This document shows, in pieces, positions 1-40,354 of a stretch of DNA of 64,000 nt (positions are counted from its first letter, which is position 1; every line of letters starts with the position of its first letter). Made by a program: the position numbers and the translations under genes. The stretch spans positions 384,001 through 448,000 of the forward strand of contig CM000431.1 of assembly GCA_000165345.1 (NCBI GenBank), read 5' to 3'. Below the pieces are notes generated by a model. The model saw only the letters and a program-made list of their open reading frames with translations, did not search any database and was not told where the DNA came from.

Positions 1-1
1 G

Positions 2-24412: not shown

Positions 24413-25357
24413 CTATTTGATTCTCCCAACATTCCTCTTTAAGTTGGTTTGATATGGGACACCCTGAACCTGAATCTGAGTCTGATTTGAATTTGATATT
24501 TGTTGTCTTTTTTGACAAACCTTAGCAGAAGTCAAAAATAACTGATAATTGTATAATTGGTTTAAGAAGCCTGGATTTGGCGCCACATAGGGCCTAGACA
24601 ACTTAATTAGATTTAAAGCTTGTAAAGAGCTAATCCCTAGTTCTCTCATTAGAAAGGCCGTACAAATTGTTGGAGCTCTGCTAATACCAGCAGCACAATG
24701 TATGTAGACATTATTAGGTCTTTCCACAGTAGATTGAGATAGTGCATTGTGAATAAAATCAAAAGATGAGGAGAAATATTTACTAATATCTTCAAATGGA
24801 GTATCATAAATAGGGATATTCAAATACAAAAATTCATTTGGAAACTTGCATGCACCCTGTAGACAACATACAATGTGAGTAATTCCAAGGTCCTTAAGTT
24901 TTTTTAAATCATTTGCTACAGTGCTTCCTCCTAAGAAAATTCCAGGAATAATCCTTTGGGCTCTGTGAAGATCCAAATTCTCTTTATTAGAATACTGGAC
25001 CTCTTTTTGAAGGATATCCCTGAAACCCAAACGATTGATTGAGCTGATGATAGTCCTCATATTACTTTCAACTTTCTCTTCATAATCTTCAATTGTGCTT
25101 TTTGGAGAAGTTACAAGTGCTCCATACAAGCTAATAACTTGGTCTAAAGAGCATATTAAGCTTATTGTTTCTTGTATCTGCATCCCTTTCATAGGCTCTG
25201 GCGTCTTTCTTTTCAACTGATGGAGAATGCGTAAAGCTGCAAAATAAAAGTTTACTCTCTCTGGTAAAATTAATTCTGATTCAGTTGAACCGCTGATATT
25301 CTCAACAACTGCCATCCTCTCAGATCTTTTATCTATTAGTCTCTTCAAGGCCTCCAT
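24413..25357 (-). CDS. Dual-specificity protein phosphatase (DUSP) with an approximately 140-aa N-terminal extension.
   Basis: Catalytic loop VYIHCAAGISRAPT (HCxxGxxR) with an upstream general-acid region. Confidence 0.8.
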   Translation of the reverse strand: MEALKRLIDKRSERMAVVENISGSTESELILPERVNFYFAALRILHQLKRKTPEPMKGMQIQETISLICSLDQVISLYGALVTSPKSTIEDYEEKVESNMRTIISSINRLGFRDILQKEVQYSNKENLDLHRAQRIIPGIFLGGSTVANDLKKLKDLGITHIVCCLQGACKFPNEFLYLNIPIYDTPFEDISKYFSSSFDFIHNALSQSTVERPNNVYIHCAAGISRAPTICTAFLMRELGISSLQALNLIKLSRPYVAPNPGFLNQLYNYQLFLTSAKVCQKRQQISNSNQTQIQVQGVPYQTNLKRNVGRIK

Positions 25358-26016
25358 TTATTATTTAATTTCTCAACAAACATTTAAAAAAAAACCTTTA
25401 AGTCAATAATTCAATAATGCACACAAGTACCCGCCAAAAGTCTTAGAAAAATTATTATTGACTTTTATAGAGAGAAATATATTGTATATATATTTTGTGG
25501 CATATTTAATGATTAAAACATACATATTTAGTATTTGAGTTTCTTATATTAGTGCTATACTATGCTTCGTGTTCTTCTGACTTAATTTTGTATTAATTTT
25601 CCGTTCAAAAATTAACTATTACAGTCTTGAAGTCAGTTTATTTTTTAATATAGACTTGAATTTTTATATTAGCCTTACTTTACAAAGAAATCTGAGAGGT
25701 AAATGCACATATTTGTAGTATATATGGTAAAATGTACAAAATAAAATTGCATGTAGTTGGCGCCAATACATTCCCCACAGTTTGCGAAACAAAAAAAAAG
25801 GTAGGGAAACAAATTCTTCTGGAAGAAAATAATTATCAATTATTTCAGTTTTCCAAGGGGTTGAGTTATAGGGGGAATCTTGGTTTTAGCTCAAGGAGGA
25901 ATATAAAGTTCCATTATTTTGAGTAGAATCTTAAAGAAGGTTGTTAGAAAAGCTGAGTTACAGAATTTAGTTAAGAAATCAACTTGAGTATATTTTTGTT
26001 AGTTAGTATTCAAAAT

Positions 26017-27843
26017 ATGTTTAGAGATAAAGTAAGAACATTCTCATCAGGAAGAAGATTTGCATGCCAAATGAAATCCTTTTTGAAAAATAGAAGGTGC
26101 ATTTCAGGATGTGCCACAGCTTTTTTGGCGGGAGGCTTGTCTGCATGGCTTTATTTGGACTCCAGAGAAAAACCAGAAAGTTATTTTTTTAACAAGCTAA
26201 AGAGTTCATATAAGGTTGGATGTGCATCTCAAGAAACTTCTAACAAGTTATTTCACCAGAAAATCTTGAATCAAAATCTATCATTGAAAACTGAAAAGTC
26301 TAATTACGTTGAGTTGATTGGAGAACAAGGACCAGTAAAAAGTATGGTTTTAGGCTCTGAAGGAACATCAGCAAAGATTTCAATTTCAGCTATTCAGGTG
26401 AATGCAAATAACCCAATAGAAGACAGGTTATTGATACAAAGGATGAGGCTCAATTTACCAGGAGGGGAAAATAAAGATTTTGTGATTTCAGCAGTAATTG
26501 ATGGACATGGAGGGTGGCAAGTTGCAGAGTATGTCCAAAATAACTTTATAAGGATATTTCAGAAAGAACTTTCTCAATATATGTCTTCTCTAGTGAGAGA
26601 GGGAAGTGCTAATGAAAGTAATCCAATTTCTCAAATAAATGAAACTGATATAATAGCCGGACTTTTTTACTCACTTAAAAAGACATATTATATACTAGAT
26701 GAGGAACTGAAGAGTAAATTGGAAGTTGCTTATAATCTTGGATTTTCTAAGTTAGCCTCAGTAGGAGCATGTACAACTGTTTCAATCATTACAGAAGATG
26801 CAATTCTTACAGCCAATTCTGGAGATTGTCTCTCCGTTTATTGTAATGAGAATGGGATCTGGCTCCCTTTAAATGAGCAACTTTCAGCAATGAATCCCCA
26901 AGAACAAAAAAGACTTGAGGAGATTCACAAGCATGAGAAGGATAACTTGATTCAATGTAAACAGATTCTTCATGAAAAATTTCTTATGGGACTTTATACC
27001 ATTCCGAAGTATAGGGGTTGCTATGTCAAAGGGATCTTACAGCCATCTAGGGCAATTGGTGACTTTAGACTAAAATCTATGGATTTCAACTATAACTGGG
27101 AGAAAGATCTAAGCACAGAAAAACTTTTACCTACATTTTCATATGTACTTAAAGACAAAGAGAGTGAACAATCTAAAAAAGAACAACACCGAGAAAATGA
27201 AGATCTGAATGAAGATGAGTTTCCATATTCATATGACCTAATTAATGGAAATAATTCAATCAATATGAGACGAGACAGTTATAGATACTTTGTAAAGAAT
27301 CCATTGAGCTTTCCTTATGTAAGATCTGAGCCAATGTTACATCTTTTCTTTTATAACTCTTTGAATAAGAATTTGAGTTCAACAGATAACACTAGTGTTG
27401 AGAAGATCTCTCCAAATGAATACTCTTTAACACCAGTACATACAAATTCTTCCCTTAAAGTTGAATATATTACTCCGGAATATAAGCACCTACCTATTTC
27501 GGAGTATTCAAACTCGAACGAATTTATCAGAGATTTCACTTTATCCAAAATAAGAAATGCATATTCTTACATTCAAAATCCCATGAATTCATCCAAAAAA
27601 AGTTTTCTTGTGCTTGGAACGGATGGAGTTTGGGACTTTTTAACTCCGAAAGATGTTACAAACGTCATATTAAACTCCAAATCAGTAGAGGATGGAGTAA
27701 GAAGAATCCTTAAAAAAGTTTTGAATAATGCAGGAATAAACAGCATTGAAAAACTCAAAAGTTTACCCAAAAAAAGAAAGGTATTTGATGATACTAGCAT
27801 TGTTCTAGCTGAGATCACCCCAAATAAACATGACAATGACTGA
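26017..27843 (+). CDS. PP2C-family Ser/Thr phosphatase with an N-terminal transmembrane/targeting segment and a large insertion.
   Basis: PP2C motif 1 SAVIDGHGG, a C-terminal metal-binding motif VLGTDGVWDFL, and an N-terminal hydrophobic segment CATAFLAGGLSAWLYL. The track ORF starts at TTG 25984; the first ATG is at 26017. Confidence 0.8.
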   Translation: MFRDKVRTFSSGRRFACQMKSFLKNRRCISGCATAFLAGGLSAWLYLDSREKPESYFFNKLKSSYKVGCASQETSNKLFHQKILNQNLSLKTEKSNYVELIGEQGPVKSMVLGSEGTSAKISISAIQVNANNPIEDRLLIQRMRLNLPGGENKDFVISAVIDGHGGWQVAEYVQNNFIRIFQKELSQYMSSLVREGSANESNPISQINETDIIAGLFYSLKKTYYILDEELKSKLEVAYNLGFSKLASVGACTTVSIITEDAILTANSGDCLSVYCNENGIWLPLNEQLSAMNPQEQKRLEEIHKHEKDNLIQCKQILHEKFLMGLYTIPKYRGCYVKGILQPSRAIGDFRLKSMDFNYNWEKDLSTEKLLPTFSYVLKDKESEQSKKEQHRENEDLNEDEFPYSYDLINGNNSINMRRDSYRYFVKNPLSFPYVRSEPMLHLFFYNSLNKNLSSTDNTSVEKISPNEYSLTPVHTNSSLKVEYITPEYKHLPISEYSNSNEFIRDFTLSKIRNAYSYIQNPMNSSKKSFLVLGTDGVWDFLTPKDVTNVILNSKSVEDGVRRILKKVLNNAGINSIEKLKSLPKKRKVFDDTSIVLAEITPNKHDND

Positions 27844-27858
27844 GCCTGAGATACTGAT

Positions 27859-28269
27859 TCATAATGCATCATCTTCCTTACTACCTCTTGATCTAATAGA
27901 ATTATTTATCCACTCATTCTTGGAGTCTCCATTTCCATTTATACTGTCTGAAACATGAAGGACTTTAAAAACGCCTTTGTTTAATTGACAAACTATCGAA
28001 ATTAACCTTCCTTTTTGGACGAGTTCCTCAATGAGTCCCCTATAAGTCTTTATAGTATCTTCATGGAAATTGTCACAGTTTGCATCATTCAGCTTGTCCT
28101 TGATTGAAACTCTAATATTGGAGGTTCCGTCATCCAACGTAATCATATCCAATTCTCCATCTTGATCTATCTCAACATCAACCACAAAACCGTGAATCCA
28201 ACAACAATCTCCATCTTCCAGAATCTTCTCTGGAACCTCGCAGATGAACATTTTTGGTGTGATTTTCAT
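27859..28269 (-). CDS. Small hypothetical protein, probable OB-fold (RMI2/Stn1/RPA-like).
   Basis: CCWIHGFVVDVEIDQDGELDMITLDDGTSNIRVSIK resembles OB-fold cores such as RMI2 ([29 protein letters not shown]). This is weak. Confidence 0.35.
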   Translation of the reverse strand: MKITPKMFICEVPEKILEDGDCCWIHGFVVDVEIDQDGELDMITLDDGTSNIRVSIKDKLNDANCDNFHEDTIKTYRGLIEELVQKGRLISIVCQLNKGVFKVLHVSDSINGNGDSKNEWINNSIRSRGSKEDDAL

Positions 28270-28534
28270 CGTTTCCCCTCTAATTTACACACAATTACAC
28301 ATGAAATTAACCTTTTCCTTTAGTCCTTGCTTTTATTATTTTAATAATGAGAGATTCTGTATATTAACTAAGTTATACAACAACTTTTGTACCTCAGCTC
28401 CATTTAGTCTGTAAGAAGAAATCTTTTGGAAAAAAAACTTTCATCTCATAATTTTTTTCTTGTAATTCTTTTTCGGTACCGTACCCACATGAGTTTGCCG
28501 CTCGTTTCTAATATTTCCAATAAAAATTACGCGT

Positions 28535-28547
28535 TTGGCGCCAATTG
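28535..28547. promoter_or_regulatory. E2F-like box TTTGGCGCCAATT at the centre of a bidirectional promoter.
   Basis: It is about 270 nt from both the minus-strand OB-fold gene start (28269) and the plus-strand four-exon gene start (28812). Confidence 0.5.
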
Positions 28548-28811
28548 TGAATTTAAAGATGAAATTAGAGTTAGAAAAAGGATAAATATTGAAATAGAAA
28601 AATCATTATGTAGATAATAATGATAAAAAGAGGAAGAACCGATTATTTGAGATAGAGGCAGAGTTTGCACACATTTACTAATTTTGCTTCATTCCTTTAG
28701 TTGGCGAGCTGAAGGTTAATAGAGGGTTAGATGGTTTAGACTCCAACTATTGTAAATAATAATATTAAGTTCGGGATTTCGAAATCGTTCGAGGGCAGAA
28801 CTAAAGTAAAG

Positions 28812-28817
28812 ATGGAG
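28812..28817 (+). CDS. Hypothetical protein, exon 1 of 4 (ATG GAG only).
   Basis: AAAG ATG GAG | GTAAGT: a start codon two codons ahead of a perfect donor. It lies about 270 nt downstream of an E2F box at 28535. Confidence 0.45.
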
Positions 28818-28885
28818 GTAAGTCTTTTTTTGAGATTGGCAATGCTTTATGTAGGGGATTACTTAACTTTCAAAATGTGTTATAG

Positions 28886-28972
28886 AATGAAAAAGAATAC
28901 CAAAAACTGGTATCTAAGTATAAGTATGTCTCTGATATTGTAAAGGAGATAATAAATCACTGCAATTCAAAG
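28886..28972 (+). CDS. Hypothetical protein, exon 2 of 4.
   Basis: Acceptor TGTTATAG|AAT; 29 stop-free codons (NEKEYQKLVSKYKYVSDIVKEIINHCNSK) in phase 0; donor AAG|GTAGGT. Confidence 0.5.
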
Positions 28973-29051
28973 GTAGGTATAGTCTATAGACTAAGATCAA
29001 GATTTATTTTTGTTACTTATAATATTTTGATTTTTTTATTTCGTAATGCAG

Positions 29052-29126
29052 AAGTTTGCGACAAGTGATTTAAGCTCAATGATTGTTCTATTGGAAGATT
29101 TAGAACAGAAAGGTATTTTTGTTGAG
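29052..29126 (+). CDS. Hypothetical protein, exon 3 of 4.
   Basis: Acceptor TAATGCAG|AAG; 25 codons (KFATSDLSSMIVLLEDLEQKGIFVE); donor GAG|GTAAGA. The alternative donor at 29113 would break the frame. Confidence 0.5.
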
Positions 29127-29209
29127 GTAAGACTAATGAAGTAGGAGATTTTTTATTACAGAATACAGTAGAGCTTTTATATAACTCATCTGTTTTGTGT
29201 TTTCTATAG

Positions 29210-30238
29210 GATTCTGATATTGAGTTTGAGAGAAAAGTGTTAGGACTTCTAGAATTTGAAATGGAGACTATGTCGAGGGAGTACGAGCAGCTTAAGAATA
29301 GTATTTTAGAACTAGCAAATGGTATTTCGAATATATCTGAGAATAAGAATCTTCCAATTCTATTAAATATATTAATGGATGGAATAGGTGCTTACAATTC
29401 TATGATAAGTAGACAATCAAACTTTACGGATTCCATGCTAGAAATGTCATTTTGGTCGATTGAGTTGATGGACACTATTTATGCAACTAATGGAGGAATG
29501 ACGACTTTGTTAGATTATACTTTAGAAAAGATCCAAGACCAATTTCCATCAATATTGAATACTTTTGACGAAATAAATTACTTGGATAAATTTTCCACAA
29601 GGTATAAAATTTCAGAAATTTATAGAGGATTAGTTAGGTTAAACTTTGGACTTGACCAGAGAATTAAATCATTAGAGGAGATGATAAATAAGAGGCAGAA
29701 ATCCAGGAACAAATCAAAAGCTTGGGAATTATATAATAGAGAGGAGGTGTTATTGAAGATCAACAATTTAAGAGAATTATCAGATTTCCTAAAGTATGAA
29801 TTCATTTCTTTAATCAAAGATATTCTCTTTTTCTCAAAATACCTTGGAATAGATGATGAACATAATTCAGCGATTAATAGTAGCCATGAAACTGATACAG
29901 ATAGCATTAAAGGGAGCTATGATGACTTAATCTCTGAAATTGAGACAGTTTGCGAGATTTTCCAAAATGGACAGGTCCACAAAACAAGAGAAATAATGGA
30001 TAGGATCATATCAAATTTAGATGTAGAGGAATTTGAAGAAATACTTGGTGCATTTAACCTTTTGAATTGGCTCAAAGGTAGGGTTTCCATTTGTTTAGGT
30101 AGAAACCTTGAAAACAACATTGAAGAGATCTCAGCAATTTGCAGCAATAAACAACAAGAATCGAGCAGTAGCGACCTTGATAAAGATGATGAGAGACTAT
30201 TAAATCACCAGGAGACTCGGTATTACGACGAAGACTAA
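29210..30238 (+). CDS. Hypothetical helical protein, exon 4 of 4 (about 399 aa in total).
   Basis: Acceptor TTTCTATAG|GAT at 29208-29209 joins in phase 0 to the long ORF. The track shows this ORF from GTG 29237, which has no ATG of its own. Confidence 0.6.
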   Translation, partial: DSDIEFERKVLGLLEFEMETMSREYEQLKNSILELANGISNISENKNLPILLNILMDGIGAYNSMISRQSNFTDSMLEMSFWSIELMDTIYATNGGMTTLLDYTLEKIQDQFPSILNTFDEINYLDKFSTRYKISEIYRGLVRLNFGLDQRIKSLEEMINKRQKSRNKSKAWELYNREEVLLKINNLRELSDFLKYEFISLIKDILFFSKYLGIDDEHNSAINSSHETDTDSIKGSYDDLISEIETVCEIFQNGQVHKTREIMDRIISNLDVEEFEEILGAFNLLNWLKGRVSICLGRNLENNIEEISAICSNKQQESSSSDLDKDDERLLNHQETRYYDED

Positions 30239-30419
30239 AGTAGAAAAGAACAGAGAAAGATAAGGGGGAGAGAAAGAAAAAAGCCGTTACGTAATATATC
30301 GTTCATTCAAAGTAGAATGTATGCAAGCACCAGTATCATAGCCATTATAATACAGAATAATAGCTTTAGATGAATTAGGACCACGTCCTCTATTAATTGT
30401 TTTACATACAAAAATTTGA

Positions 30420-31415
30420 TTATATTGTCATTTCAACATTAATATTCTGAGTATTAGTATTTAACCATGGATGCTGAAGGGCTTCCAATGCAGTGATTCG
30501 CTTCTTAGGACAATATTGCAACAATCTGAATAACAGATCAACCCCAGCCTGATCAAGGTTTGGAAGAAGTGCATGGAGATTCAACTTTGGATTCACCTTC
30601 CACTGAGGAAATACGCTTTTATAGCAAGGAAGCTGAGTAACCCCTGGCCAATTACTCTCATTTGCAGTTCCAAGAAGCCTGAAAATATAAAATAAAGTAT
30701 CAATTTCACTGTCTCCCGGGAATATAGGCTTTCCAGAGATCATTTCTACCATAATACAGCCTACACTCCATAAGTCAACGCTACAATTATAACATCTTTG
30801 TCCAAGAAGAAGTTCAGGTGCACGGTACCATAATGTAACAACTTCGTGGGTATTTGGCTTTAAAGGAGGAGTAAAGGTTCTAGCAAGGCCAAAATCTGCA
30901 ATCTTAAGAGTGTTTCCTGAATCACTTAATAATAAATTTTGTGGTTTTAAATCACGATGTAAAATCCTTTTCCCGTGGCAGAAAGCCAAACCGCTGAGTA
31001 GCTGACGTAATAGAGACTTGACCTGGTTTATAGAAAGACCCTTTTTCCTGTTTAGTCTTAAATATCTTCTCAAGTCTGTCTCGCAATACTCAAAAATAAG
31101 CCATATCTGCATGCCCGTGCATGATACTTCCAGCAGCGCTACTATATTTGGGTGTTTTAACTCTCTTAATAGGACGATTTCTCTTATAGCTGTTGAAGGC
31201 AGTCCAACTTCATCCAATATCTCATCACTGTCAAACCTAATCTTTTTTAAGGCAACAACTTCCCCAGTATCTTTTCTTAAACCTTCCCAAACAATACCAT
31301 AAGTGCCTTCTCCAATCACTCTAACCATACTATAGTTTTTTTCTAGGCCTTGAGTATCTTCAAAAGTGCTTGTACATTCTGTTTGGCAGCCTACTGTGCT
31401 TGAGTGGACCTCCAT
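30420..31415 (-). CDS. Cyclin-dependent kinase (Cdc2-related, PSTAIRE-type).
   Basis: GEGTYGIVWEG, VALKKI, the cyclin-binding helix GLPSTAIREIVLLREL, HRDLKPQNLL, DFGLAR and WYRAPE. Confidence 0.85.
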   Translation of the reverse strand: MEVHSSTVGCQTECTSTFEDTQGLEKNYSMVRVIGEGTYGIVWEGLRKDTGEVVALKKIRFDSDEILDEVGLPSTAIREIVLLRELKHPNIVALLEVSCTGMQIWLIFEYCETDLRRYLRLNRKKGLSINQVKSLLRQLLSGLAFCHGKRILHRDLKPQNLLLSDSGNTLKIADFGLARTFTPPLKPNTHEVVTLWYRAPELLLGQRCYNCSVDLWSVGCIMVEMISGKPIFPGDSEIDTLFYIFRLLGTANESNWPGVTQLPCYKSVFPQWKVNPKLNLHALLPNLDQAGVDLLFRLLQYCPKKRITALEALQHPWLNTNTQNINVEMTI

Positions 31416-32322: not shown

Positions 32323-34092
32323 TTAAAAAACTAAAACAATAAATACAAGAAATATATTGTAGGCGAATAAAGCCAGAATAGAAGGAATAGAGTTTGTGTT
32401 TTTTGAATCCAAGTGATTGGAATCAGAATTGATTGAAGTTGGAGAGTAGCTAATTAAAGAAACTTGAACTTCAGAACTACAATGTTTCTTACTTGTACAA
32501 GTTAAAACTTGGTCAAGATCTTTATGAGCCTTTTCGGAAGTAATAGTGCTAGATCCATCAGGGGACTCACTGTTACAGCATGTAGAAAATGGGCTTAAAT
32601 CACAAGTATTTGAAACCAAACTTATGTTTTCAATACTATTACAACAACTTTCACCCAAAGATTTTTGTGAATTTTGGTAGTTAAATATTTGGTTTAAATC
32701 ATTTGGTAGTTTTTTATTAGCTTTTTGGATAAATTTGGAAGTATCTTTTCCAATAAAAGTTAACATCCAAACTACATCCGATATTTCTTTAATCCCTTTA
32801 AATTTTTCATACAATCTAGTAGACAACTTATCTAAAGTATCCCAAATAAAGTAATCATAGTCGTTGAAATTATTTTCTTGTCTAACTTGTACGATATTTA
32901 ATAAATGGTAAGAGCTGTTCCATTCTATTACACAACTCTCAGGGTCTCTATCTTTTATTGCAAGTGCTTTCGAAATGCTTATCTTCTGAAGATCATTATT
33001 GTTAATAATGTTATAATCATTCGAATTTGAATGCTTTATTAGAACGAAGCCCTTAATAAAGTTCAAAGAAAATGAAGAAATCAAGAGATTCAATTCATGC
33101 ATGGTTAATAGAGATATTCTATCGCTATCAAGAATCCAAAAAAGCCAGTTAATAGGAGACTTTAGCTCTGCTAATGAAAACGACCAAAAAATATGAGCCA
33201 TCGCTTTTGGAGTAAATGAGCAAATTTCCATCTTAGAAATTAATTCATACAAATCTGTTGGAACAATATCTGCTAATGAAAATGCATAACAAAGCATTGA
33301 AATATGTATTGGAAGAAATTTATCTATTGTTTGAATGCTCTTCCTTTTAAGGTTCTCAAATAGGTGAGGCGAAACAAGTCCGACTTTTGAATACGACCAT
33401 GCAATATTTGAAATCTGTTGTGGTTCTAAATTATCAAGTTCTGAAAGTATTTTTGGTATTGCATAAACAAAAAGATTTTTATTAAATTTTCCTGCCTTTG
33501 CAAATGACCATAAAATGATGCTCAAGTTAATTGAAATAAATCTTTCTAATTGAATAATTGACTCATTACAGACGAAATCAAATATTTTATGATTATTCAA
33601 TCCAAGCTTTACTAGAGACCAAGCAATATTTGACAGTTCTTTTGGAGAAAATCGACATGGAAAGTTACTCCTAAGTACTATTACATCCAAAAGAAGCCTA
33701 AATCTTTCATCTCGTTTTATTCTCCCTTTGAAGTTATTACTCTGGGATAATACAGCTAATTTGTGTAATATTGATACCATATTAATCTCATTTAAATAAT
33801 AAATATGGCAATGAACAATTCCTAAAAGCTCACCAAAAGACTCAGAAGCAGTAATTATTTTGTTCATTTTTAAATTAAATACAATATGTTCGTCCCTTGA
33901 ATACAATACTCCATTATTATAAGTTATATTTCTCTGCTCATAGGGCCCCGAAAATTGACCAATATAGCATTGGTGAGTTCTACTAAAATCAAAATATTGT
34001 TGAAATCCTGAGTTTGGTATAATATTTATTGGATTTGTTATAGAAATTTCATCATTGTTATGATGCAAATCTGCATTATTGCATGCTTGCAT
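32323..34092 (-). CDS. Hypothetical alpha-solenoid protein with about 37-residue repeats (heptatricopeptide/FASTK-like) and a C-terminal transmembrane tail anchor.
   Basis: At least five tandem units share xLSNIAWSxxKxGLxxxxLFxxL (LSNIAWSLVKLGLNNHKIF / LSIILWSFAKAGKFNKNLF / ISNIAWSYSKVGLVSPHLF / ISMLCYAFSLADIVPTDLY / MAHIFWSFSLAELKSPINW). The last 22 residues, IPSILALFAYNIFLVFIVLVF, are hydrophobic. Confidence 0.5.
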   Translation of the reverse strand: MQACNNADLHHNNDEISITNPINIIPNSGFQQYFDFSRTHQCYIGQFSGPYEQRNITYNNGVLYSRDEHIVFNLKMNKIITASESFGELLGIVHCHIYYLNEINMVSILHKLAVLSQSNNFKGRIKRDERFRLLLDVIVLRSNFPCRFSPKELSNIAWSLVKLGLNNHKIFDFVCNESIIQLERFISINLSIILWSFAKAGKFNKNLFVYAIPKILSELDNLEPQQISNIAWSYSKVGLVSPHLFENLKRKSIQTIDKFLPIHISMLCYAFSLADIVPTDLYELISKMEICSFTPKAMAHIFWSFSLAELKSPINWLFWILDSDRISLLTMHELNLLISSFSLNFIKGFVLIKHSNSNDYNIINNNDLQKISISKALAIKDRDPESCVIEWNSSYHLLNIVQVRQENNFNDYDYFIWDTLDKLSTRLYEKFKGIKEISDVVWMLTFIGKDTSKFIQKANKKLPNDLNQIFNYQNSQKSLGESCCNSIENISLVSNTCDLSPFSTCCNSESPDGSSTITSEKAHKDLDQVLTCTSKKHCSSEVQVSLISYSPTSINSDSNHLDSKNTNSIPSILALFAYNIFLVFIVLVF

Positions 34093-34486: not shown

Positions 34487-35101
34487 ATGAAGTTAAATTT
34501 TGATTTTCAAGGAGTTTTTAAAAGTATAAACTTGAAGGAAAACCTTAATTTTAATAATTGTGTATCTGCATATAACAATATTAAGAGTTATGCAGCAAAT
34601 GCATTCAAAAGCTGTGAAGATGATATTAGTTTATTCCTTGAAGGAAAGCCTTTTGTATTATCAAACATTAACTACAATGAGTTAAGTAATAAATTAATTA
34701 AGGTTAGGAAGAATATTGAAAATGGTCTTAAGGGTGGAAAGGGAGGTTTTGGAGCAACAATAAAGAGTCAGAAGAGAAAAGTAAATGTAAGAGAGCTAAG
34801 CGTTGACCTTTGTAGAGACTTAAAGACAGGAAAGCGCATCAAAGACTTAAATAAATCTGGAAATAATGTTGAAAGTAAAGTCGAGGGTAGTTCTAGAACA
34901 AAAAGTTCAAGTTCTACTAATAGTGGTAGTATTAGTAGAAATTCTAAAGTTCTAGAAAATTCATGTTCTATAGTCAATTCTGAAAATGAGTTGTTAACTC
35001 AATATCAGTCCCATGTTTTAAATTTAGAGAATAAATGGAAGAATATTTCAAAATCTGTTGATTTTGGCATGAATAATTTGAACCAAAAAGTTAATGTTTG
35101 A
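34487..35101 (+). CDS. SDE2-like protein (N-terminal UBL-like region plus a GG-K processing motif).
   Basis: GLKGGKGGFGATIKSQKRKVNVRELSVDLCRDLKTGKRIKDLN matches human SDE2 [40 protein letters not shown]. Confidence 0.6.
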   Translation: MKLNFDFQGVFKSINLKENLNFNNCVSAYNNIKSYAANAFKSCEDDISLFLEGKPFVLSNINYNELSNKLIKVRKNIENGLKGGKGGFGATIKSQKRKVNVRELSVDLCRDLKTGKRIKDLNKSGNNVESKVEGSSRTKSSSSTNSGSISRNSKVLENSCSIVNSENELLTQYQSHVLNLENKWKNISKSVDFGMNNLNQKVNV

Positions 35102-35503: not shown

Positions 35504-38500
35504 ATGCTATATTTGAAGTTTATATTAAATATTCTTATCTTTTTTGCAGGCAAAACACTCTCGGAGCCTCTTCCATTTTCATCGGATGAGGTTACCGTTG
35601 TTCCATTTCCTCCTTTCATCCCAGTAGCAGGAGGTTATGTACCAGAGCCACAAAATAATGGAACAACTATTGATTACGTCCAAAAAAGTAGGAATGACTA
35701 CTTTGGGAGTGAGTTAAGCCAAATAGTAAACTCCCCAAACTTTCATCTGGTCACTATTCAAAATGGAGAACAAAATAAACAAGTTTGGGCGTTTGTACTT
35801 GGAAATGAAAAGAAAGTATTTGCATATAGAACAGAAAACATAAGTATTACTGATCCACTACATCTGGGAAGTAATTGGAATGTTATCAGTAATAGTGAAT
35901 CGAACGTTTGGCCAGTAAAAATGAGATTTGTATACCCTTCTTGCCACAATATGGTTAAAGATAAGGATGAAGAAGGGGTGGATTGCGGAGGTCCTTGTAA
36001 ACCTTGTAATATGTTTAACAGTTGTAGAATTGGGCTGGATGATCTAAGAACACATAAAATTTTAAAGTACTCCACATGTATTGGTGAGTTGAAACATGGA
36101 GAGTTTTGTTCTCTCACATGTCCTGTTGGATATAGAATGAAAGACTTAACCAAGATGAAGAGTGAAATTTATTCTCAGTGTTATGATGGAAGGCTCAACC
36201 AACTGATATTTGGGAATATGCAAGCCCCAATGACAGGAGAAAGCTACTATTCAAGAGAATATAGAGGATTTAGAAACATGTTGGAAAGTGAGGTGAGTCA
36301 TTTGGATCAGGAGTTTAATGAACTGTGTGAGTCTCCCTTTGAATATATGTGTAAATATATTTCTTTAAGGTTAAAAAGGTCATCTTTGGAAGAGGATGGA
36401 GAAGGAATAAATTATAGAATGCCTTGTGAGGGAATTTTTACGGCAGTACCAAGATATCATGGTAAAAAGAGCTATTGGGTGTCAGTCAATTCAAGAGGTG
36501 AAAGAGTTACTTTATTTTGGAAGGAAAATACTTGGATATGTGTAAACACCCTCTCAAATTCTGTATTGGGTTATATTCAGGATTCAAATCCAGCTTTATT
36601 GTTATCTGAAGAGCATATGAGTAATTTAGTTTGGATACCATGGTCAGAAAATGGTCCTTTAAATCAAAATAGGTCATATGTTATATTAAGATGTAGTAAA
36701 AAGAAGCCAAGAGAAGTTCCAGGTAGATGTAATTCACTTACAATGCAAGGTTGGAATTACGGAACCAATTACAATGGTATATGGGTATCTGTTGGTGAAA
36801 GTACTGATATTTTTAATGGAGATATAAGAGGTATATATATTAAGCCATATAGCAATTTAGTATTACTATATAATATGTATAAATTACAATGGGAAATATA
36901 TGAACGCTTGGGGGATGTTTCATATGAAAAATTGAAGCAAGTAATGCGACAAGATGGAAAGATTAAAGATAGAGTATTGAATGAAGAAAACACTTATCTT
37001 AAGGAGAACAATAAAGGATGGGTACTTAGAGCAATGAATCCACACCCAAATCCTTCTCCTCCTAAGGGAAAATGGCTCACTACACCAAAAAGTAATTTTG
37101 AGGAAGAAAATATATTGCAAATAAAATACTATCATATTGATGTTTATTGTGATTCAAGCGTAACTACTCTATCTGGTGGTGATGTTCATCTTAGTCCAAT
37201 AAAGCTGGTAAGAGCAATAAATGAGGATCCTGTTGTATGTTCATCAGAGAAGCCAGTAACTAGCTTTTCACTCAATTTGGACTTTTCAAATTTAGCATTC
37301 AAACCAAGAAATAGTTATATTGATAGGTATGATGGTAGATTTTCTGGAAATGGTTGCAAGTATATGGAAGTTAAAGGAACCACAATAGAGGCAACGGAGT
37401 GCTCAGGATTCTTTAGAAAAGAGGAGTTAACTCAGGGTGAAACCATTTGGAAGAAGATTGCGAGCAACTCTAGAATTGTATTATTTTATTGGACAGGAAT
37501 TAAATGGATTTGTACAAGAAATGATAGTAGTAATACGATACTTGGATATATTGACAATGAAGAACAGGAAGAAGGGTATTGGTTGAATAAGATTGATTCT
37601 TCAGCAGGAGCTTACATAAAGACAAGAACAACATTGAAATGTTTTAAAAATCATCCTCAGGAATCAGGAGCTGAACATTCTTGTAACAGGGCATTATTGA
37701 AAGGCTGGCCTATTGGAATGGAAGCTTTAAATGGAAATTGGGACTTGAATAGATATGAAGTTTATATTGAAGGAAACAAAAATGGAGATGAATTGAGCAG
37801 GAGTAAGAAGGAAATTAAATACTATGAACACAGGAGATCTGATGGATGTAAATTATATCTTTATTTTGATGATAATGTGGGCTACACAGTTATTACTAAT
37901 AATCATCCAAAAAGCAGACCAGAATTGGAAAACAAGAAAGACAAAAAGAATAAATATATTGCAATTTATAAGGACGAACTTCAGGGAACTCCTATATTAA
38001 AAGGACAAGATTCTCATCACGTTCAATGGCTATATTATCCAATTGATGAAGATAATATGGCAAATTTGAGTTCTCCAAGAGCGCTTTCTAGTACATATAT
38101 TTACACTAAATGCCGAGATAATGAAGAGCATTATTCTAAAAGACAAAATAGTCAAGGAAGAGGTTTTGATGAAGAAGATATGAATAATTCTATTAATTTT
38201 AGTAATGAAGGAGAGAATAAGAACAATTCTCAATTACAAAATACAAGTACAAAGAAACAAAATAGAGTTTCATTGGGAGGTAGAAAGCTAGCTAAAGGTA
38301 AATCAATTAGCAAAATTTCTCAATGTAGTGAATACAAAATTATGGGATTTAATAAGCCTTTGGAATCTTTAAATGGAATTTGGAAAAGGGATGAAAGTTA
38401 TCCAAAACAAGGAGAGACTTCATCTGCAGAATCAATCTTGGAACTTTATAAATGTACAAATAGTAATGACAAGGATATTTATATTTATTATTCGGAGGCT

Positions 38501-40354
38501 CCTTTAAATAAGACTGGATGGTTTTTGGACTATGATCTTAATCCATTGAATGGTTTCATTGCATTGGGGACTAATAGCACTTCAGATGGATTAACATCTT
38601 CTTGGAGACTTTGGAGTTTAACAGAAAAGAAATGGAATAATTTGGACCTTAGTTTGGAATGCCAAGATCAAACTAATAATTCTAATGTTAATAATAAAAA
38701 GACAATTTTTACTACTACTGATAGCAAAGTATTGGTGAATGGATTTGAAGTATTGGAGAGTGAATCTCCAAAAGAATTGAGTATAATTCCTTTTGAAGAT
38801 GTGGAGGATCATATAAAAACCGCACCAATTCGTGAAATGCCAATACCATTTTTCACTGCAAGCTTACCATTAATAGGACAATTAGCAGCAAATGCTTTTC
38901 CTATGATAAAAGGTATATCAAGCTTAGCTCCAAAGAAGCCAAAGCCAACAAATGAAGATTTATTAGGATCACCAGTGACAGCATCAGCAATTTTACCCAA
39001 CTTGGACATATTTTCAACTGCTGAACAATTAAGACAAAATATTACAAAGAGCAGACAAAATGAAAGGCCTAGTATATATTATGATCCATCTTTACTTCCT
39101 CGAAATAGTATGAATGGAAATAATATTCCTTCAGTAATGCCTTATGATCAATTTGGCCCTCCTGTGAATATGTATAATCCAAGAAATGACATTCCCAACT
39201 ATAACTACTTGCCAGGACAACACAATATGTTTTATTCTCCTATAGGGCCTGGAAACATTCATAACAATAATATGTTTGATCCCAGTCTGGGTCCAAGCAA
39301 TAACTATTTTTATAATCCGTACAATAATAATAATTTCAATGGTATTCAACAACAACAAAACACTGGAAATGAGATGAGAGATATTTCTTACTTGAATAAT
39401 CAGCAGCAACAGCAACAACAACTTCTTCAGCAACAACAGGAACTACAGAAGGAGCAACTTGAACAGCAGCAACAGTTGCAATCTCAGCAGCAACAGCAAC
39501 AGCAGAAATTACAAAAGCAGCAGCTAGAGCAGTTTTACCATCCAACTCAAAATGCACAACAAATTAATGAAATACCAACATTGGCAGGAGATCATGAAAG
39601 CGTTAATGGCCAACTATTATACTATGTAAACGGAAATTTTAGCCAAGGAGGGAATAATTTGGAGATACCTGTTTCTACAAGCACAACTACTACCACAACA
39701 ACTACCACCACAACCACAACAACTACTACTACCACAACAACAACTACCACCACAACCACAAGTACAACTACCACCACAACTACTACCACCACAACTACTA
39801 CTACCACAACCACAACTATTGCTACTACTACTGAAATTGAAAATTCAAATAGAGATAACATGATTCCAGGAATTTCAGAAGAGGGAAGGAAAGAGTGTCC
39901 TGAAGATAAAGAGTGGGTAGTGGAGCATGGAAAGTTATTAACTGAATCAGGGAGCATAACAAATAAGTACAAGGTGATAATTGTGAGCATTTTGTATCAA
40001 GAAGATTTAAAGCTAAATTATTTACAAGGAGTATATAGTTTCAACGGGATTTTCAATGGCAGACCTTCATATAGACATTTTGTAAATGGAGTAAGAAATG
40101 AATCAAATAATCTTCCAGAGTTAAAAACTTCAAATTTGGATGTTTCACTTTTTTATGACAAGAGATTAAGGTCATGGATATTCGGAGATTTAGAGAATAT
40201 TGGTTATAATACAGAAGAGTCAATATATATAAGAAGCTCACAAAGTGACTGTCTTGTTCCATGGGACTCCACGATTACATGGAAAAATGCAAGTAATTCA
40301 GCTTCTTTACCATTAATTATTTCAGTAAGAGCAGGAGAAAGCATTAATTATTAA
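35504..40354 (+). CDS. Large secreted mucin-like glycoprotein. It has a signal peptide, a Cys-rich region, three copies of an approximately 300-aa module, a poly-Q/N/P linker, a roughly 50-residue poly-Thr tract and a C-terminal globular domain.
   Basis: N-terminal signal peptide MLYLKFILNILIFFAGKTLSE. Cys cluster CGGPCKPC...C. A repeated module marked by GW..G...NG.W (MQGWNYGTNYNGIWV, LKGWPIGMEALNGNWDL, IMGFNKPLESLNGIWKR). A CAG/CAA poly-Q stretch (39401-39535). ACN-codon poly-Thr (39676-39832). Confidence 0.8.
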   Translation: MLYLKFILNILIFFAGKTLSEPLPFSSDEVTVVPFPPFIPVAGGYVPEPQNNGTTIDYVQKSRNDYFGSELSQIVNSPNFHLVTIQNGEQNKQVWAFVLGNEKKVFAYRTENISITDPLHLGSNWNVISNSESNVWPVKMRFVYPSCHNMVKDKDEEGVDCGGPCKPCNMFNSCRIGLDDLRTHKILKYSTCIGELKHGEFCSLTCPVGYRMKDLTKMKSEIYSQCYDGRLNQLIFGNMQAPMTGESYYSREYRGFRNMLESEVSHLDQEFNELCESPFEYMCKYISLRLKRSSLEEDGEGINYRMPCEGIFTAVPRYHGKKSYWVSVNSRGERVTLFWKENTWICVNTLSNSVLGYIQDSNPALLLSEEHMSNLVWIPWSENGPLNQNRSYVILRCSKKKPREVPGRCNSLTMQGWNYGTNYNGIWVSVGESTDIFNGDIRGIYIKPYSNLVLLYNMYKLQWEIYERLGDVSYEKLKQVMRQDGKIKDRVLNEENTYLKENNKGWVLRAMNPHPNPSPPKGKWLTTPKSNFEEENILQIKYYHIDVYCDSSVTTLSGGDVHLSPIKLVRAINEDPVVCSSEKPVTSFSLNLDFSNLAFKPRNSYIDRYDGRFSGNGCKYMEVKGTTIEATECSGFFRKEELTQGETIWKKIASNSRIVLFYWTGIKWICTRNDSSNTILGYIDNEEQEEGYWLNKIDSSAGAYIKTRTTLKCFKNHPQESGAEHSCNRALLKGWPIGMEALNGNWDLNRYEVYIEGNKNGDELSRSKKEIKYYEHRRSDGCKLYLYFDDNVGYTVITNNHPKSRPELENKKDKKNKYIAIYKDELQGTPILKGQDSHHVQWLYYPIDEDNMANLSSPRALSSTYIYTKCRDNEEHYSKRQNSQGRGFDEEDMNNSINFSNEGENKNNSQLQNTSTKKQNRVSLGGRKLAKGKSISKISQCSEYKIMGFNKPLESLNGIWKRDESYPKQGETSSAESILELYKCTNSNDKDIYIYYSEAPLNKTGWFLDYDLNPLNGFIALGTNSTSDGLTSSWRLWSLTEKKWNNLDLSLECQDQTNNSNVNNKKTIFTTTDSKVLVNGFEVLESESPKELSIIPFEDVEDHIKTAPIREMPIPFFTASLPLIGQLAANAFPMIKGISSLAPKKPKPTNEDLLGSPVTASAILPNLDIFSTAEQLRQNITKSRQNERPSIYYDPSLLPRNSMNGNNIPSVMPYDQFGPPVNMYNPRNDIPNYNYLPGQHNMFYSPIGPGNIHNNNMFDPSLGPSNNYFYNPYNNNNFNGIQQQQNTGNEMRDISYLNNQQQQQQQLLQQQQELQKEQLEQQQQLQSQQQQQQQKLQKQQLEQFYHPTQNAQQINEIPTLAGDHESVNGQLLYYVNGNFSQGGNNLEIPVSTSTTTTTTTTTTTTTTTTTTTTTTTTTTSTTTTTTTTTTTTTTTTTTIATTTEIENSNRDNMIPGISEEGRKECPEDKEWVVEHGKLLTESGSITNKYKVIIVSILYQEDLKLNYLQGVYSFNGIFNGRPSYRHFVNGVRNESNNLPELKTSNLDVSLFYDKRLRSWIFGDLENIGYNTEESIYIRSSQSDCLVPWDSTITWKNASNSASLPLIISVRAGESINY
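39401..39535 (+). repeat. CAG/CAA-rich coding repeat (poly-Gln) in the mucin gene.
   Basis: CAGCAGCAACAGCAACAACAAC... Confidence 0.7.
39676..39832 (+). repeat. Imperfect ACN trinucleotide (Thr-codon) repeat array encoding the mucin poly-Thr tract.
   Basis: About 52 consecutive ACA/ACT/ACC codons, interrupted by AGC, AGT, ATT and GCT. Confidence 0.8.

Follow-up and report, generated by a model that had tools for sequence, protein, structure and literature searches.

HPR proteins (Hillebrand et al. 2018, PMC6212722; Toxoplasma mitoribosome structures 9i05 and 9g6k) are made up by tandem 37-residue, two-helix repeats, at least two of which must be present, and the first helix carries a hydrophobic/aromatic W-A/S-x-x-K-x-G signature. 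HPR motifs overlap the Pfam domain FAST_1 (PMC6212722). In human FASTK and FASTKD1-5, FAST_1 is found along with FAST_2 and RAP domains; RESC6 of T. brucei is a soluble protein of the mitochondrial matrix, where it belongs to the RNA-editing substrate-binding complex, and its annotation includes a RAP domain.

Cryptosporidium lacks an organellar genome, and neither HPR nor RAP proteins have been reported for C. parvum or C. hominis (PMC6212722, PMC8190603). HPR proteins were recognized by Hillebrand et al. through a MEME/MAST motif, at a total e-value <1e-4, and no protein of either species matched (PMC6212722). From this absence both papers (PMC6212722, PMC8190603) argue that the HPR and RAP families have no purpose other than the expression of organellar genomes.

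A C. parvum gene encoding 37-residue helical repeats

The gene described here is an intronless ORF on the reverse strand of the window, i.e., of the whole 64,000-nucleotide stretch of DNA analyzed; its limits coincide with those given in the initial annotation (Table 1). The product is 100% identical to C. parvum Iowa II EAK89138.1 (=QOY42501.1, CPATCC_001145), annotated as a hypothetical protein, the UniRef name of which had already been taken from the RESC6 domain; literature searches by accession or locus tag gave no matches. Orthologues of 576-606 aa reside in C. hominis, C. meleagridis, C. tyzzeri, C. ubiquitum, C. canis, C. felis, C. ryanae, C. bovis, C. muris and C. serpentis, and the core is strongly conserved among them (mean column identity in the alignment 56%). 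No other HPR-like ORF was found within the window, no C. parvum paralogue among the matches of a single-sequence search, and no animal relative among the closest matches. A word-indexed protein search with the alignment of 11 orthologues returned the same Cryptosporidium set only.

Table 1. Features of the ORF and of the encoded protein; positions refer to the window.
Feature	Residues	Position	Strand	Remarks
Complete intronless ORF		32323..34092	-	ATG start, 589 aa plus stop
N-terminal region	1-64	33901..34092	-	predicted disordered, poorly conserved, weakly aligned
Helical-repeat core	65-342	33067..33900	-	N-terminal cap and ~7 repeats of two helices each, FAST_1/RESC6/HPR type
Four units in exact 37-residue register	147-294	33211..33654	-	each with core L-S-N-I-A-W-S-x-x-K-x-G ... 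LF
Cryptosporidium-specific module	343-410	32863..33066	-	4 short beta-strands; invariant I389-E390-W391
Last helices of folded domain	411-460	32713..32862	-	one further repeat-like unit, EISDVVWMLTFIGKD
Linker between folded domain and anchor	461-566	32395..32712	-	disordered, acidic, Ser/Thr/Asn-rich
SPFST motif within linker	500-504	32581..32595	-	P501, S503 and T504 invariant across the genus
C-terminal hydrophobic segment	567-589	32326..32394	-	NSIPSILALFAYNIFLVFIVLVF; predicted tail-anchor TM helix; coordinates checked by translation

A core motif of the type [LIVMFA][SAL]x[ILVMT]x[WY][SAM][LFY] recurs at aa 153, 190, 227 and 264, at a spacing of exactly 37. Further copies are found at aa 298, after a spacing of 34, and at aa 437, along with a weaker unit around aa 333. 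When aa 96-350 are compared with themselves under BLOSUM62, the score is highest at offsets 74 and 37 (z ~6 each), and both peaks exceed the highest value attained at any offset in 1000 shuffles. The 37-aa repeat is therefore real. Units number seven to eight, four of them in exact register and the others adjoining, an outcome in line with the tandem 34-37-aa units with a shared core noticed earlier, of which at least five had been counted. AF2 models aa 65-455 confidently as an alpha-solenoid, made up by helix pairs throughout in the core, where pLDDT is ~90; with a pI of 8.7, this core is mildly basic. Residues D439, G448 and K449, in the last helices, are invariant in the alignment of the Cryptosporidium orthologues.

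The assignment to FAST_1, RESC6 and HPR-type proteins results from both profile and fold searches. Pfam FAST_1 (PF06743) matches aa 139-181 with 22.7 bits (E 9.4e-05), below the gathering cut-off of 27.4; all 11 Cryptosporidium members of the alignment match at E <=1, the best at 5e-08. Precomputed matches are available to PF06743 for the C. bovis orthologue and to PF26188 (RESC6), absent from the local Pfam scan, for every orthologue. The best solved-structure match, by sequence as by fold, is T. brucei RESC6 (8fn4 chain 6; E 3.8e-10 with the single sequence, 2.3e-11 with the profile, 1.3e-07 in Foldseek). Each of the top 25 Foldseek matches is either a RESC chain, a mitoribosomal HPR/OPR-like chain or ASA2, and the mitoribosomes of Toxoplasma, Polytomella and Chlamydomonas are represented among the fold matches by HPR/OPR-type proteins. 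The Toxoplasma chains 9i05_Xj, Xh and Xl are hit at E 3.8e-07 to 2.3e-05; by sequence, Toxoplasma HPR chains match weakly (phmmer, E 0.09-0.9). The match to the FASTKD4 structure 9gek is weak as well (Foldseek, E 1.1e-02). A profile search gathered 3003 FAST_1/RESC6-type proteins. The same fold is also encountered in purely structural or scaffold roles, in Polytomella ASA2 and in RESC6 itself.

Pfam found neither FAST_2 nor ARM or HEAT repeats in the protein at E up to 10, and no RAP domain (PF08373; PD-(D/E)XK/Vsr-like fold) was detected, the module at aa 343-410 not being one. The repeats thus fall in the FAST_1/RESC6/HPR-type group, and not with ARM or HEAT proteins, given that RESC, HPR and OPR chains were the top fold matches instead. 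The initial annotation, which had likened the repeats to those of the HPR/FASTK/RAP family, is supported as to HPR/FAST_1-like helical repeats, with the reservation that the protein, lacking a RAP domain, is neither a RAP nor a full FASTK protein.

The W-A/S-x-x-K-x-G signature of the first helix is common to HPR proteins and the C. parvum protein, the repeats of which overlap FAST_1 as well, though below the gathering cut-off. Unlike HPR proteins, the latter features a C-terminal membrane anchor, and neither an organellar targeting signal nor a RAP domain. The helical repeats, with FAST_1 matched below the cut-off, also resemble those of the human FASTK family, but FAST_2, RAP and presequence are missing, and the protein is membrane anchored. 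The setting of RESC6 differs as well, mitochondrial RNA, RNA editing and a detectable RAP domain all being absent in Cryptosporidium, where an anchor is found instead. Of the statement that HPR and RAP proteins are both lacking in Cryptosporidium, the HPR half is not strictly true, and needs correcting.

Anchor, linker and N-terminus

Hydropathy of the C-terminal segment reaches 2.66 in a 19-residue Kyte-Doolittle window, the sole such peak in the protein, which terminates inside the segment; AF2 predicts a helix at 569-588. An equivalent segment is present in 11 of 11 Cryptosporidium orthologues. The linker preceding it (pI 4.9, S+T+N fraction 0.40) is poorly conserved, and pLDDT is <50 over aa 461-568. 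The conserved SPFST box may be regarded as a candidate linear motif. The N-terminal end is similarly modelled with pLDDT <50 (aa 1-62).

Hydropathy and charge of the first 40 aa, used here in place of a dedicated signal-peptide predictor, revealed no signal peptide or presequence features in the 11 orthologues: the maximum 12-residue hydropathy is <=0.77 in all of them, and net charge ranges from -4 to 0 in most species. The protein has a single TMD within ~40 residues of the C-terminus, no other TMD, and no N-terminal signal peptide. The tail-anchored topology suggested earlier is upheld as a prediction by the terminal TMD and by an N-terminus devoid of targeting features. A basic flank after the TMD is typical of mitochondrial outer-membrane tail anchors; no basic residues follow the TMD in C. 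parvum, and at most one K/R in other Cryptosporidium species.

Anchored relatives in dinoflagellates and Vitrella

The nearest relatives are ~45 C-terminally anchored proteins of dinoflagellates and Vitrella, examples being the Durusdinium trenchii EP00913_P008327 cluster, MMETSP transcripts and Vitrella brassicaformis CEM09139.1; the best single-HSP BLAST matches are 440-500-aa proteins terminating in a TMD. When the Cryptosporidium and anchored-family alignments are compared by hhalign, they match with a probability of 100% (E 7.7e-43, 30% identity) over 241 collinear columns, corresponding to aa 71-312 of the C. parvum protein. In reciprocal BLAST from the anchored family, Cryptosporidium ranks directly after the family members. 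The Vitrella protein CEM09139.1 has the same layout as the Cryptosporidium protein, core, long linker and TMD, the linker being of low complexity. A metagenomic relative, P0055, resides on a compact, gene-dense contig. No published description of an anchored FAST_1/RESC6-like family was found in the literature.

Anchored relatives and Cryptosporidium proteins share EPQQIxNxxW in the third unit and PxxxSMLxYAFxLA in the fourth, and the C-terminal TMD is common to all. Three features of many relatives, namely a PAM2 motif at the N-terminus, the conserved box FGGGxxFLSKY and a basic flank (W-R/K) behind the TMD, are missing from Cryptosporidium; conversely, the beta-containing module at aa 343-410 is found in Cryptosporidium only, and is absent from dinoflagellate and Vitrella relatives. 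PAM2 is the peptide ligand of the MLLE domain of the cytosolic poly(A)-binding protein (PABP). The pattern L/F-N/D-P/A-x-A-x-E/V-F-x-P (regex) detects it in 24 of 44 dinoflagellate-type relatives, the Pfam PAM2 model matching at best with E 3.4e-05, and in none of the Cryptosporidium orthologues. Any link of the Cryptosporidium protein to PABP would run solely through homology to its PAM2-bearing relatives; by the same analogy, the motif lends indirect support to post-translational insertion with a cytosolic N-terminus.

Cytosolic mRNPs as possible targets

The best explanation, which we hold with moderate confidence, is that the protein belongs to an old myzozoan subfamily and serves as an adaptor, bound to a membrane and facing the cytosol, that works on cytosolic mRNPs, not on organellar RNA. 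Its whole N-terminal part would fold as a FAST_1/RESC6-type (HPR-like) solenoid of 37-residue repeats, exposed to the cytosol by the tail anchor, and a flexible linker of ~100 residues would keep the solenoid away from the membrane. Together with the anchored proteins of dinoflagellates and Vitrella, that of Cryptosporidium would make up this subfamily, HPR-like and anchored at the C-terminus, and distinct from the HPR/RAP proteins of the matrix, which serve mitochondrial ribosomes and RNAs. As approximately half of the relatives carry PAM2, the subfamily would most likely serve to keep cytosolic mRNPs, or a protein that partners with them, at the surface of an organelle, which may be either the mitochondrion/mitosome or the ER. 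Tethering of mRNPs would explain why this protein has been retained, though the literature reports no other HPR/RAP protein in Cryptosporidium. The reported lack of HPR and RAP proteins in C. parvum and C. hominis (PMC6212722, PMC8190603) also places it apart from the organellar set. The initial annotation had reasoned that in Cryptosporidium an HPR-type RNA binder would need a non-organellar role; the protein is that of C. parvum, hence this reasoning stands, and it is strengthened by PAM2 in the nearest relatives.

AKAP1, SYNJ2BP/OMP25 and Drosophila MDI-Larp are outer-membrane tethers of mRNAs or mRNPs in which a membrane anchor is joined to a cytosolic RNA/mRNP-binding module. They are functional analogues of the proposed role only, and their folds are unrelated. 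A more specific reading, decidedly speculative, is that of a myzozoan mitochondrial-surface receptor, a tail-anchored HPR-type solenoid capturing PABP-bound nuclear mRNAs for translation beside the import machinery, a PAM2-less version of which would sit on the genome-less Cryptosporidium mitosome.

RNA binding by the solenoid is plausible by analogy with its fold class. The same tail-anchored architecture may however, with lower probability than a role on mRNPs, hold a solenoid that acts solely as a scaffold between proteins and takes no part in RNA biology, for instance a tether or receptor at the surface of an organelle. PDB matches do include ASA2, a structural subunit of the Polytomella ATP synthase featuring the same fold, the core is only modestly positive in charge, Cryptosporidium has no PAM2, and the lineage-specific beta module and the conserved SPFST linker motif resemble partner-binding features. 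Yet nearly all characterized proteins with this fold are either RNA binders or located on rRNA (PMC6212722), and PAM2 in the relatives suggests mRNP biology.

Proteins of this fold class are in the great majority mitochondrial or plastidial (PMC6212722), and the one described here might be seen as a remnant of the machinery for organellar gene expression, taken up by the mitosome and now either functionless or repurposed inside. This is very improbable: the N-terminus is acidic or neutral, unconserved and not presequence-like, the terminal TMD is kept across the genus, the level of core conservation speaks against decay, and the nearest relatives are anchored proteins with a cytosolic PAM2 peptide. 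The C. canis orthologue is annotated as a 'transmembrane domain-containing or GPI anchor-containing protein', and a hydrophobic C-terminal stretch following a Ser/Asn-rich region would suit a secreted, GPI-anchored surface protein; this is scarcely credible for a folded domain of an intracellular helical-repeat class, with a signal peptide in 0 of 11 orthologues, and relatives with cytosolic PAM2 motifs and a TMD followed by charged residues. Membership in another solenoid family (ARM, HEAT, TPR or PPR), or a chance periodicity brought about by AT-rich coding sequence, can be practically dismissed, the 37-aa period being above all shuffles, FAST_1, below the cut-off, the only Pfam match, the 3003 proteins of the profile search of FAST_1/RESC6 type, and the top fold matches all RESC, HPR or OPR-type chains.

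A repeat type which normally handles RNA inside mitochondria is thus found here with a C-terminal anchor, in a parasite with no mitochondrial genome. The gene reveals a separate, membrane-anchored branch of the HPR family, probably facing the cytosol, which Cryptosporidium has in common with dinoflagellates and Vitrella, and tied to PABP by the PAM2 motifs of the relatives. Because there is no organellar RNA to confound results, Cryptosporidium is a clean system for the function of HPR-type solenoids outside organelles, including a possible tethering of mRNAs at the surface of the mitosome or ER. Should the protein prove to be a receptor of PABP-bound mRNAs, an 'organellar' RNA-binding fold would act on cytosolic mRNA, and would provide a handle on the delivery of proteins to the mitosome.

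Repeat core, C-terminal segment and neighbouring genes

The gene of the heptatricopeptide repeat (HPR)-like protein is a single ORF with an ATG start. Its product matches C. parvum Iowa II EAK89138.1 / QOY42501.1 (CPATCC_001145), annotated as 'hypothetical protein', with 100% identity, so that the initial guess of Cryptosporidium as the organism was right; its UniRef name derives from the RESC6 domain, PF26188. Orthologues 576-606 aa in length, one per taxon, are found in C. hominis, C. meleagridis, C. tyzzeri, the chipmunk genotype, C. ubiquitum, C. canis, C. felis, C. ryanae, C. bovis, C. muris and C. serpentis.

A motif scan located the core [LIVMFA][SAL]x[ILVMT]x[WY][SAM][LFY] at aa 153, 190, 227 and 264, with a spacing of exactly 37 residues, and again at aa 298 (34 residues after the previous match) and aa 437. 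Upon BLOSUM62 self-comparison of aa 96-350, the top two offsets are 74 and 37, each ~6 SD above shuffled sequence and above anything that 1000 shuffles gave at any offset. The tandem repeats claimed in the initial annotation are therefore real, their number being seven to eight and not five. The hydrophobic segment noticed at the extreme C-terminus corresponds to aa 567-589, NSIPSILALFAYNIFLVFIVLVF; it is the sole strongly hydrophobic segment of the protein, which ends within it, and is present in all the sequences of an alignment of 11 Cryptosporidium orthologues. In the same alignment conservation is high over aa 70-455 and poor in the first 64 residues and the linker (aa 461-566), except for a short SPFST motif in the linker with P501, S503 and T504 invariant. 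The repeat core is mildly basic across Cryptosporidium species (pI 8.7-9.4).

Signalling enzymes are clustered upstream of the gene. The SDE2-domain ORF (splicing regulator; E 5e-10) is divergent from it, ~400 bp apart. Directly downstream, on the opposite strand, a large ORF has no Pfam match. The N-terminus of its product is hydrophobic, several Cys/Trp-rich modules are present, apparently as repeats, and there are runs of Gln and a Thr homopolymer of ~45 residues; the protein looks like a mucin-type secreted glycoprotein. The G+C content is 0.43 at window positions 1..2000 vs. 0.23-0.36 elsewhere in the window.

Coordinates of the HPR-like gene and neighbouring features in the window
Feature	Position	Strand	Length (aa)
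Signalling-enzyme cluster	24413..31415		
Dual-specificity phosphatase	24413..25357	-	
PP2C phosphatase	25984..27843	+	
CDK-like protein kinase	30420..31415	-	
HPR-like protein	32323..34092	-	589
SDE2-domain ORF	34487..35101	+	204
Mucin-like ORF	35504..40354	+	1616

Fold and family

In the AlphaFold2 model, obtained with the orthologue alignment, aa 65-455 form a solenoid of helix pairs (pLDDT ~90), disorder is predicted for aa 1-62 and 461-568, and residues 569-588 make up a terminal helix. The only Pfam match in the C. parvum protein is FAST_1, below threshold (22.7 bits vs. 27.4); FAST_1 is matched in all members of a second 11-member alignment, four of which are Cryptosporidium orthologues. 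Among solved structures, T. brucei RESC6 is the sole significant sequence match (E 3.8e-10; 2.3e-11 with the profile), and also the first Foldseek match in the PDB (1.3e-07), followed by mitoribosomal HPR/OPR-type proteins (Toxoplasma, Polytomella, Chlamydomonas), further RESC subunits and ASA2 of Polytomella; the fold match to FASTKD4 is weak (1.1e-02). In Polytomella, ASA2 acts as a protein scaffold, and a solenoid serving as a scaffold only is the main alternative for the Cryptosporidium protein, though less likely than the role proposed below. Membership in a different repeat family is unlikely, as profile and fold matches are HPR/FAST_1-like, not ARM/HEAT: a profile search of 1.84 billion representative proteins retrieved 3003 relatives, mostly long multi-repeat proteins, which confirms the HPR/FAST_1-like assignment and excludes ARM/HEAT.

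The RAP part of the initial HPR/FASTK/RAP assignment did not stand. Four short strands are predicted within aa 346-400, adjoining an invariant I-E-W, and the likeness of the latter to the RAP central strand suggested a RAP domain; Pfam RAP, however, matched neither the C. parvum protein nor any of the 11 members of the second alignment. The module is missing from the nearest relatives, and represents an addition to the solenoid that is specific to Cryptosporidium.

HPR proteins have been reported absent from C. parvum and C. hominis in a screen with an iterated MEME/MAST motif, a result used to argue that the family functions in mitochondrial gene expression (Hillebrand et al., PMC6212722), and likewise RAP proteins (Hollin et al. 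2021, PMC8190603). No further link between Cryptosporidium and FAST kinase-like, HPR or RAP proteins was found in the literature searched. RAP absence holds for this protein. HPR absence is not borne out, at least as far as fold and homology to FAST_1/RESC6 are concerned.

Membrane-anchored relatives

No end-to-end match outside Cryptosporidium was found in the profile search. With the C. parvum and C. muris proteins as queries, the best single-segment BLAST matches are ~440-500 aa long, likewise with a hydrophobic segment at the end. A search seeded with one member of this anchored family brought it to ~45 proteins. Without exception they come from transcriptomes or EukProt/MMETSP sets, and those with a named source belong to Symbiodiniaceae (Durusdinium, Breviolum, Symbiodinium). 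They are collinear with the Cryptosporidium proteins over aa 70-310, sharing unit-specific signatures such as EPQQI(S/A)N(I/T)xW in the third and PxxxSMLxYAF(S/A)LA in the fourth unit, and profile-profile comparison gave a probability of 100% (E 7.7e-43, 241 columns). In reciprocal BLAST, Cryptosporidium ranks directly after the anchored family and before nearly all other HPR-like proteins, alongside few others, Vitrella brassicaformis CEM09139.1 among them. Like the Cryptosporidium protein, the latter has a core followed by a long low-complexity linker and a TMD (aa 671-690 of 735). This homology points to a subfamily covering dinoflagellates, a chromerid and Cryptosporidium, probably older than apicomplexans.

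One anchored relative (P0055, L001:5001-6431) resides in a eukaryotic contig (ENA ERZ27280268, k141_1015665) that is very rich in genes and apparently poor in introns, next to BolA, DnaJ, VTT-domain and cytochrome b5 genes. Breviolum and Durusdinium gene models (P0062, P0136/P0171) combine the same core with unrelated C-terminal sequence devoid of a TMD, P0062 matching PF00454 (PI3/PI4-kinase); these are probably fused or mis-predicted models, not real architectures. In P0038 (HPR-like, 525 aa, five-member cluster) the hydrophobic segment is near the N-terminus (aa 44-62) and not C-terminal, and this protein may represent the membrane-anchored HPR theme in a signal-anchored form.

A canonical PAM2 peptide (e.g. 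LNPEAAEFKP, FDPNAPEFVP) is found within the first 50 residues of 24 of 44 anchored relatives (P0046, P0080, P0172, P0176, P0182-P0187, P0189-P0191, P0193, P0195, P0196, P0199-P0202, P0204 and others), with a conserved FGGGxxFLSKY box after it; the peptide is also recognised by the Pfam PAM2 model (best E 3.4e-05). PAM2 peptides bind the MLLE domain of poly(A)-binding protein (PABP), which is cytosolic. The presence of PAM2 would place the N-terminal part in the cytosol, as the tail anchor predicts, and tie it to polyadenylated mRNPs. In most anchored relatives the TMD is directly followed by W-R/K and further basic residues, a flank typical of mitochondrial outer-membrane anchors. In contrast, PAM2 was not found in the Cryptosporidium proteins; these carry one basic residue or none after the TMD, and have acquired the beta module and a long acidic linker. 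A metagenomic protein, P0045 (JGI, 745 aa), features a regular HPR array, a clear RAP domain (IAIEVDGPSHF) and, at its end, a PAM2-like peptide (MNPNAKEFKP), and suggests that cytosolic PABP may be contacted by some HPR-RAP proteins without an anchor, too.

Proposed topology and role

The best-supported reading is that the protein, an HPR-type solenoid by architecture and homology, would be tail-anchored and face the cytosol, kept off the membrane by the flexible linker, as a member of a myzozoan subfamily whose putative targets are cytosolic mRNPs, or partners of these, at an organelle surface. Both a GPI-anchored surface protein and a matrix relic are unlikely, since a signal-peptide- or presequence-like N-terminus (hydrophobic or basic) is found in no Cryptosporidium orthologue. 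For the tail-anchored solenoid, the target membrane would be that of the mitosome or the ER, and RNA or mRNP binding is predicted.

The initial observation was real, and its interpretation largely right. The gene is not new, being annotated and automatically given a RESC6 domain label. In the literature searched no citation of the accession numbers was found, no publication joining 'tail-anchored' with FAST kinase-like, HPR or RAP families, and no account of a FAST_1-like protein that is membrane-anchored and carries PAM2. Undescribed there are the anchored architecture, the occurrence in a genus from which the family is said to be missing, and the kinship with the PAM2-bearing anchored family. 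Action at the organelle surface would be unaffected by mitochondrial genome loss, and would explain the survival of the protein in Cryptosporidium.
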